A DNA stretch of 530 nucleotides, from NCBI RefSeq assembly GCF_003334765.1, contig NZ_QOWT01000114.1; one strand, 5' to 3'. This stretch comes from Escherichia coli. GTDB taxonomy: Bacteria; Pseudomonadota; Gammaproteobacteria; Enterobacterales; Enterobacteriaceae. Each line of letters opens with the position of its first letter. The first letter of the stretch is position 1. Made by a program: the position numbers and the translations under genes. Under the pieces are notes generated by a model, which was given only the letters and a program-made list of their open reading frames with translations, was not told where the DNA came from and searched no databases. Shown here piece by piece: positions 58 to 177 of the stretch.

Positions 58-164
58 TCACAACCCGAAGATGTTTCTTACGATTCATCATCGTGTTGCG
101 AAAATTTGAGAGACTCACGAACAACTTTCGTTGTTCAGTGTTTCAATTTTCAGCTTGATCCAGA

Positions 165-177
165 TTTTTAAAGAGCA
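165..177 (-). promoter_or_regulatory. Spacer boxA-like transcription antitermination element (NusB/NusE binding site in rrn transcripts)
   Basis: The minus strand reads 5'-TTGCTCTTTAAAAATCTGG-3' across 160-178. Its core TGCTCTTTAAAAA matches the boxA consensus TGCTCTTTAACAA at 12 of 13 positions. A second boxA in the 16S-23S spacer is an established feature of E. coli rrn operons. Confidence 0.65.

Follow-up and report, generated by a model that had tools for sequence, protein, structure and literature searches.

An 11-nt sequence that occurs twice in the spacer upstream of the 23S rRNA of an Escherichia coli rrn operon belongs to two different, known RNA elements with different structures. 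In the explanation that best accounts for the data as a whole, and in which we have high confidence, the copy next to 23S is a strand of the processing helix, the upstream copy is the apex of the spacer boxB hairpin, and the identity between them is uncoupled. The window, the whole 530-nt stretch of DNA analysed, is the 16S–tRNA-Glu–23S spacer of E. coli rrnB and is transcribed from the minus strand. The plus-strand sequence ACCCGAAGATG (transcript RNA CAUCUUCGGGU) is present as exact copies at 63-73 (copy 1) and 193-203 (copy 2), as the sequence-only reading had reported. That reading also had copy 1 ending a few nucleotides from the 23S terminus at position 57, and this is borne out: copy 1 occupies -16 to -6 relative to 23S +1, with 5 nt (UGUGA) between it and 23S.

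The repeat itself is not a strong signal. Dinucleotide-preserving shuffles produce a direct repeat of at least 11 nt in 2.7% of cases when the whole window is shuffled and in 1.35% when only the spacer is, so that the repeat is mildly unusual and not compelling, while this specific 11-mer is expected 0.02 times in shuffles. The identity of the two copies stops at 11 nt, with mismatches on both sides. Extension to 22 nt gives 77% identity, with 6 of the 11 extra positions matching in A-rich sequence. Since the likeness is limited to 11 nt, no module has been duplicated.

The window is 100% identical to the rrnB locus (btuB-murI-rrnB-murB) of many E. coli genomes, and a search with the spacer only found it to be nearly universal among E. 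coli genomes. The whole operon in transcript orientation is referred to as L001, where window position w corresponds to L001 4531-w, 23S to L001 4474-7378 and tRNA-Glu to L001 4205-4280 (RefSeq annotation of an identical rrnB locus). On the minus strand, where all the features described below also lie, the window contains nucleotides 1-57 of 23S at 1-57 (Rfam LSU model positions 1-57, with position 1 and the RefSeq annotation both placing the 23S 5' terminus at 57), tRNA-Glu (UUC) at 251-326 (Rfam tRNA match of 60.1 bits over 326-254; RefSeq annotation) and the 3' end of 16S at 498-530 (Rfam SSU model positions 1501-1533; RefSeq annotation). The plus strand of the window has no open reading frame above 33 aa and no promoter-like site, and a protein-coding or antisense-gene reading of it was therefore dropped.

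Two further inverted repeats are seen in the spacer. A 10-bp perfect inverted repeat, ACACGAAAAU/AUUUUCGUGU (I3, 325-366), lies directly upstream of tRNA-Glu on the transcript and encloses an inner palindrome, UAUCACGCAACGCGUGAUA (339-357); the plus strand there scores as terminator-like. It may be a structure for tRNA 5' processing or of the spacer. The other, of 12 nt at 384-395 and 444-455 in the 16S-proximal part, is 92% complementary with the arms 48 nt apart, and may be part of the 16S trailer structure.

Two RNA elements behind one 11-mer

Copy 1 lies within the 5' strand of the core leader–trailer helix of 23S (50-77), which is made up of leader positions -20 to -1 and 23S nucleotides 1-8, the 5' strand of helix H1. 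The partner strand consists of positions -9 to -1 from the 3' end of 23S and trailer +1 to +19, with one bulged G at trailer +6. The trailer following 23S is ACAACGCCGAAGAUGUUUUGGCGG; reverse-complemented it becomes AAACAUCUUCGGCGUUGU, which differs from the leader AAACAUCUUCGG-GUUGU only in the one bulged G. Co-folding of the short leader with the short trailer gave -51.6 kcal/mol, as against -17.9 and -11.3 kcal/mol for the separate strands, and the minimum free energy structure has 28 continuous pairs, helix H1 included. By the partition function, copy 1 pairs over its whole length with trailer +4 to +15, each base with a probability of at least 0.997.

The covariation obtained here is in line with this pairing. 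Species-representative genomes were scanned with the 23S 5' end as the anchor, which introduces no motif bias, giving 120 loci. Alignment A1 is gapless and comprises 22 distinct leader, H1 and trailer constructs from Enterobacterales, Vibrionaceae, Endozoicomonas and others. Over these 22 distinct operons 97.8% of the helix positions are paired, and two-sided changes are seen in nine pairs, amounting to 45 cells. The observed value was never reached in 500 shuffles, and slid controls give 33-50%. Within copy 1, changes on both sides are found among the 22 taxa at -16, -15, -14, -13 and -10, with the pair at -15 seen as AU, GC, CG or UG, that at -14 as CG, UG, GC or UA, and that at -10, which is the C of UUCG, as UA, CG or GC. 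The segment adjoining 23S differs by taxon, being CAUCUUCGGG in Escherichia and Enterobacter, CACCUUCGGG in Citrobacter sp. R56, CAGCUUCGGG in Enterobacter sp. JUb54, CGCCUGUGGG in Pantoea and Tatumella, CCUCUUGGGG in Vibrionaceae and UCGCUUUGGG in Endozoicomonas, and the trailers change in step.

The base opposite leader U(-14), at trailer +13, varies between the seven K-12 operons (L122-L128), being A in rrnC, G in rrnA and rrnE, and C in rrnB, rrnD, rrnG and rrnH, so that the core helix contains U-A, U·G or U·C three pairs from the RNase III site. Given the U·C mismatch in four of the seven, the helix is not perfect. The operon of the window has U-A at this position, in contrast to the U·C of K-12 rrnB, rrnD, rrnG and rrnH and the U·G of rrnA and rrnE. 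A bulged purine at trailer +6 (A1 column 54; L001 7384) is common to 22 of 22 distinct operons, from Enterobacterales to Endozoicomonas. It is a G, or an A in Vibrionaceae, and directly faces the RNase III cut, where it may help to set the cleavage register.

Two side observations concern Erwiniaceae loci. At A1 columns 16:58 a G·G mismatch is present in all seven distinct Erwiniaceae constructs (Pantoea and Tatumella; L013, L023, L025, L028, L031, L099 and L100), where U-A is found elsewhere. In Pantoea sp. 1.19 (L013 9845-10109) two 23S 5' ends with leader sequence lie 219 nt apart on one scaffold, where either part of the region has been duplicated or the assembly is at fault.

Copy 1 with its flanks is the same element as the E. 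coli 23S processing helix surveyed in PMC11404451, adjoining 23S, contiguous with H1, complementary to the trailer, covarying with it and containing the published cut at -7, and there is no essential difference between them. That leader–trailer helices of 23S are ubiquitous and essential is established (PMC11404451, PMC10250234, PMC8782170). The suggestion in the sequence-only reading that copy 1 is part of the processing stem for RNase III thus stands, on the trailer pairing, the strong covariation and the position of the cut. The E. coli helix with its RNase III site was reportedly described by Bram, Young & Steitz in 1980 and by Liiv & Remme in 1998.

Copy 2 has a different setting. It is an exact match to the apical 4 bp and the UUCG loop (196-199) of the spacer boxB hairpin (178-217; inverted repeat I1), in which 11 bp, a 2x2 internal loop and 5 bp lead up to a cUUCGg tetraloop. 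The minimum free energy of the hairpin is -16 kcal/mol. Among 11 homologues of the same length 97.2% of the positions are paired and six pairs have changed on both sides (0 of 500 shuffles), including all five apical pairs overlapping the 11-mer. The loop is UUCG, UACG, UGCG, UCCG or CACG, occasionally GUUA (rrnG) or GUAA. Selection on boxB acts on shape and not on sequence, with the apical stem varying freely. The joint ensemble leaves the UUCG of copy 2 unpaired; the bases on either side of it pair within the hairpin, and pairing with the trailer has a probability of 0. Copy 2 is accordingly a textbook member of the cUUCGg (UNCG) tetraloop hairpins, a C-G closed UUCG on a stable, covarying stem.

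Immediately 3' of the hairpin on the transcript is the spacer boxA (165-177; RNA UGCUCUUUAAAAA), and GCUCUUUAA(A/C)AAU is conserved at this place throughout Enterobacterales as well as in the spacers of many Vibrionaceae. A statement in PMC10250234, citing Berg et al. 1989, places a second boxB-boxA-boxC set upstream of 23S; the boxA string was not found in PMC3177189, and the identity of boxA therefore rests on its conservation together with that statement. As far as this statement describes the signal of Berg, Squires & Squires (1989), copy 2 corresponds to the hairpin apex before UGCUCUUUAAAAA. According to the role given to it in the literature, boxA, which boxB directly precedes, is the NusB/NusE site at which the rrn antitermination complex is re-established ahead of 23S. 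The conservation of the hairpin of the window is seen from covariation. Nus binding and antitermination activity are taken from the literature. The apex is one of several alleles (UUCG, UACG, UGCG, UCCG, GUUA and others), and spacers of the Ile/Ala type carry an unrelated hairpin. A separate case is Citrobacter amalonaticus S646 (L114), whose spacer is very short: boxA is within about 40 nt of the 16S 3' end, with no tRNA and no boxB hairpin. At the distance expected for it, no 23S 3' end was found in this locus.

Distribution of the repeat and origin of the identity

Each of the seven K-12 operons has copy 1 at -16, and three of them (rrnB, rrnC and rrnE) have copy 2. In rrnG, which is also of the Glu type, the boxB apex is GACUGUUAAGUC, and the Ile/Ala operons of K-12 have a different hairpin. 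Over Enterobacterales the repeat is found in 7 of 44 distinct spacers and is absent from 18 of the Glu type and 19 others. The seven that bear it have a single boxB-apex allele and come from E. coli, Citrobacter youngae, Kluyvera and Enterobacter mori. Spacers with the same leader copy often carry other boxB apices, and no spacer with a changed leader, for example CACC, CAGC or CGCC, shows a matching change at the apex. Judged by this comparison of spacers, the two copies are uncoupled and the match is not conserved. The idea of a duplicated module or a functional repeat family is not supported, as in relatives the copies are neither kept together nor change together.

The 11-nt identity is thus a property of one boxB-apex allele, without detectable functional coupling. 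Its origin is most likely chance convergence on a sequence containing C(UUCG)G. A cUNCGg apex already has 6 nt in common with the leader strand and, with the 3' GU set by stem complementarity, only about three further bases should have to match. The same apex allele is nevertheless found in four genera, Escherichia, Citrobacter, Kluyvera and Enterobacter, and this, taken with the 2.7% rate in shuffles, means that a non-random origin or weak selection is possible.

An old local transfer of sequence is a possible origin of that kind, and the alternative that survives best. Here a short piece of the leader strand, 130 nt downstream, would have served as template for the apex CAUCUUCGGGUG, through gene conversion or template switching, and rrn recombination would later have carried the allele to other operons and genera, with no function attached to the repeat. 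We consider this unlikely while leaving it some weight. The repeat is longer than expected by chance, and an identical allele in four genera and in three of the four K-12 operons of the Glu type fits the spread of one allele. Against such a transfer, the match breaks off sharply after 11 nt and is flanked by mismatches, a cUNCGg apex should need only about three further matching bases, and no intermediate alleles were found among the 44 distinct Enterobacterales spacers. Chance convergence on the C(UUCG)G-containing sequence is preferred.

A second case of a leader sequence recurring upstream was observed in Zobellella and Oceanimonas (L019, L020, L115 and L117), where the leader 9-mer ACUUCUUGG at -17 is found again at about -99 to -109. 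This second copy, some 85-90 nt upstream, is at the 3' edge of another hairpin, and the case is independent and structurally different; its chance expectation is about 0.02. As the only other case, and one lineage event, it does not support the idea that leader-strand sequences generally recur farther up the spacer, and such a rule was rejected.

The RNase III site, StyR-44 and a second partner for copy 1

The published E. coli cuts by RNase III lie 7 nt before the 5' terminus of mature 23S and 7-8 nt beyond its 3' terminus (PMC7261194, PMC8708148). These positions have been transferred from the E. coli papers to the present sequence. On the leader strand the published cut falls between -8 and -7, at the bond 65/64 of the window, which is inside copy 1 between CAUCUUCGG and GU, and it leaves the '+7' pre-23S 5' end. 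Mapped RNase III sites had been proposed as a check on the sequence-only reading, and they place the cut within the 11-mer. In the modelled duplex -7 pairs with trailer +5, and a 2-nt 3' overhang past the +6 bulge would give the published +7/+8 positions.

The same position marks the end of a known Rfam family. StyR-44 (RF01830) matches the window at 65-173 over its full length (model 1-107 of 107; 124.9 bits against a gathering score of 54 bits; E=1.6e-21), and the match ends at window 65 (L001 4466, -8), coinciding to the nucleotide with the published RNase III cut. StyR-44 would therefore be the spacer fragment released by the cut, and the data suggest that it is simply the stretch of leader strand excised between boxA and this cut. 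In an extended leader–trailer structure, most of it also serves as the leader strand. Co-fold minimum free energy predicts distal segments of this structure within 98-166 (98-102, 107-113, 145-158 and 161-166), pairing with trailer +21 to +55, and the trailer motif GAUUUUCAGC(C/U)UGAUAC recurs among Enterobacteriaceae trailers. The 5' part of StyR-44, AAUCUGGAUCAAGCUGAAAAUU (window 145-166), is unstructured in the Rfam model and is predicted here to pair with the trailer sequence GAUUUUCAGCCUGAUACAGAUU (L001 7412-7433, trailer +34 to +55), a motif found in many Enterobacteriaceae. This predicted distal helix shares 2 nt with the 3' edge of boxA.

The published description of StyR-44 is of an RNA of 109 nt that lies upstream of 23S in each of the seven operons, is seen on northern blots and is regulated with growth (PMC2943607); Rfam lists it as a 'gene'. 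Its model has a 3' hairpin of which copy 1 is the 3' arm. It could be argued from these blots, the strong Rfam match, the presence of the hairpin in the consensus and the conservation of that local hairpin that copy 1 is mainly part of a bona fide small RNA and not a strand of the processing stem. This appears very unlikely. The discoverers themselves allowed that StyR-44 might be a metastable processing intermediate and could not exclude it (PMC2943607), its 3' end is the RNase III cut, it is without a known target or function, and the leader–trailer pairing is far stronger in both covariation and energy. The copy in the window is best read as the excised leader strand.

The 3' hairpin of StyR-44 (65-95) does, nonetheless, offer copy 1 a second partner. 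Its 5' arm CGAUGAUG pairs with CAUCUUCG of copy 1, a pairing that is mutually exclusive with that to the trailer, and the Rfam consensus structure likewise pairs CGA-GAUG with CAUC-UCG. In the leader-only ensemble copy 1 pairs with L001 4435-4445 with a probability of 0.93-1.0. The hairpin is predicted in most of 33 distinct Enterobacterales leaders despite their differing sequences. Duplexes between the native 5' part and 3' arm have a mean energy of -8.65 kcal/mol, compared with -5.65 kcal/mol for chimeras between motif classes and -4.7±2.5 kcal/mol for shuffled 5' parts. Aligned with a covariance model, 19 distinct Enterobacteriaceae sequences have 95.8% of the hairpin positions paired, with shuffles at 74.2±1.1% and slid controls at 37-52%, and two pairs have changed on both sides, one of them at -14.

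These figures come from few independent lineages and from an alignment fitted to the covariance model. The model, R1, gave 51-nt off-target matches within 23S and missed the hairpins of Erwiniaceae (Pantoea/Tatumella); its rows were filtered by hand, and the count therefore covers Enterobacteriaceae only. Unguided alignment of 20 leader 3' segments with MAFFT followed by RNAalifold gave no consensus structure, because the 5' arms, being of variable length, were misaligned, and this result was not counted against the local hairpin. The energy control with swapped and shuffled parts and the covariance-model alignment took its place.

There is moderate evidence, from comparison of the leaders and trailers, that the strand adjoining 23S has two conserved, mutually exclusive partners, and position -14 covaries with both the local and the trailer partner. 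Before the trailer is made, the bases of copy 1 would form the 3' arm of the local hairpin with CGAUGAUG, some 20 nt upstream. Once the trailer has been transcribed, 2.9 kb downstream, AAACAUCUUCGG-GUUGUGA and 23S nucleotides 1-8 pair with the 23S 3' end and ACAACGCCGAAGAUGUUU. RNase III then cuts the duplex within the 11-mer, between -8 and -7, and on the trailer strand 7-8 nt beyond 23S. In the excised StyR-44, whose 3' end is the cut, the bases of copy 1 would probably refold into the local hairpin. We infer this order, from local hairpin to trailer pairing to refolding after cleavage, from the structures. It is a tentative proposal, and somewhat more likely wrong than right, that the strand is deliberately bistable in this way, with the 65-95 hairpin as a placeholder until strand exchange with the trailer and with refolding in StyR-44. 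Transient structures in pre-23S have reportedly been discussed by Liiv & Remme in 2004. The 11-nt repeat plays no part in this reading.

The repeat as a unit and what the two copies mean

A function for the repeat would call for one partner shared by both copies, either the trailer CCGAAGAUG pairing with them alternately or one protein, through which antitermination would be coupled to 23S processing. The trailer of this operon is indeed perfectly complementary to 9 nt of both copies, and the repeat is statistically mildly unusual. However, the boxB copy never pairs with the trailer in the joint ensemble (probability 0.0), the repeat is missing from four of the seven K-12 operons and from 37 of the 44 distinct Enterobacterales spacers, the leader or trailer has changed where boxB has not, and all the apical boxB pairs covary freely. 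In addition, deletion of boxB in the leader region, a different boxB copy, had little effect on 30S biogenesis (PMC10250234). We regard a shared function as highly improbable, and keep to two uncoupled copies.

The sequence-only reading had put forward copy 1 as a second UUCG-tetraloop module, possibly a duplicate of that in the 178-217 hairpin, while noting that its stem was short. The stem is as weak as it had supposed, with 3 bp (A-U, U·G and C-G) and +0.7 kcal/mol in isolation. The UUCG is base-paired in the leader-only and the leader-plus-trailer ensembles alike; in relatives UGUG, UUGG or UUUG takes the place of this 'loop'; and its C covaries with the trailer. In the relatives compared no compensatory changes were found in the 3-bp stem, its 3' partners being invariant. 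As copy 1 is within the trailer duplex cut by RNase III, the UUCG there is helical and not a loop. Folding with the 23S trailer leaves no room for a local tetraloop hairpin, and the repeat is absent from close relatives as well as from four of the seven E. coli K-12 operons; both are outcomes that the sequence-only reading had itself named as refuting. In contrast to copy 2, copy 1 has the letters of a cUUCGg hairpin without the structure, its bases lying within a long helix. Although the letters C(UUCG)G and a potential 3-bp stem are there, in an 11-mer identical to the apex of a genuine tetraloop hairpin, the unstable stem, the unconserved loop, the pairing of its bases elsewhere and a likeness that ends at 11 nt leave a second, independently folding hairpin hardly credible, and this candidate was ruled out.

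Knowledge of both elements in E. coli, the leader–trailer helix with the RNase III site and the spacer boxB-boxA signal, goes back to the 1980s; the repeat that links the helix with boxB is an allele-specific coincidence. With all its elements known, the finding carries little weight as a discovery. It does give a caution, in that the string C(UUCG)G is no evidence of a tetraloop: identical 11-mers form here a loop in one place and a helix in the other. Only the conserved bistability of the strand adjoining 23S adds something mildly new. Its two mutually exclusive partners point to a possible co-transcriptional folding device for a long-range pre-rRNA helix; were both pairings kept by selection, the local hairpin would be a chaperone that works during transcription and helps the 23S leader–trailer helix to form.
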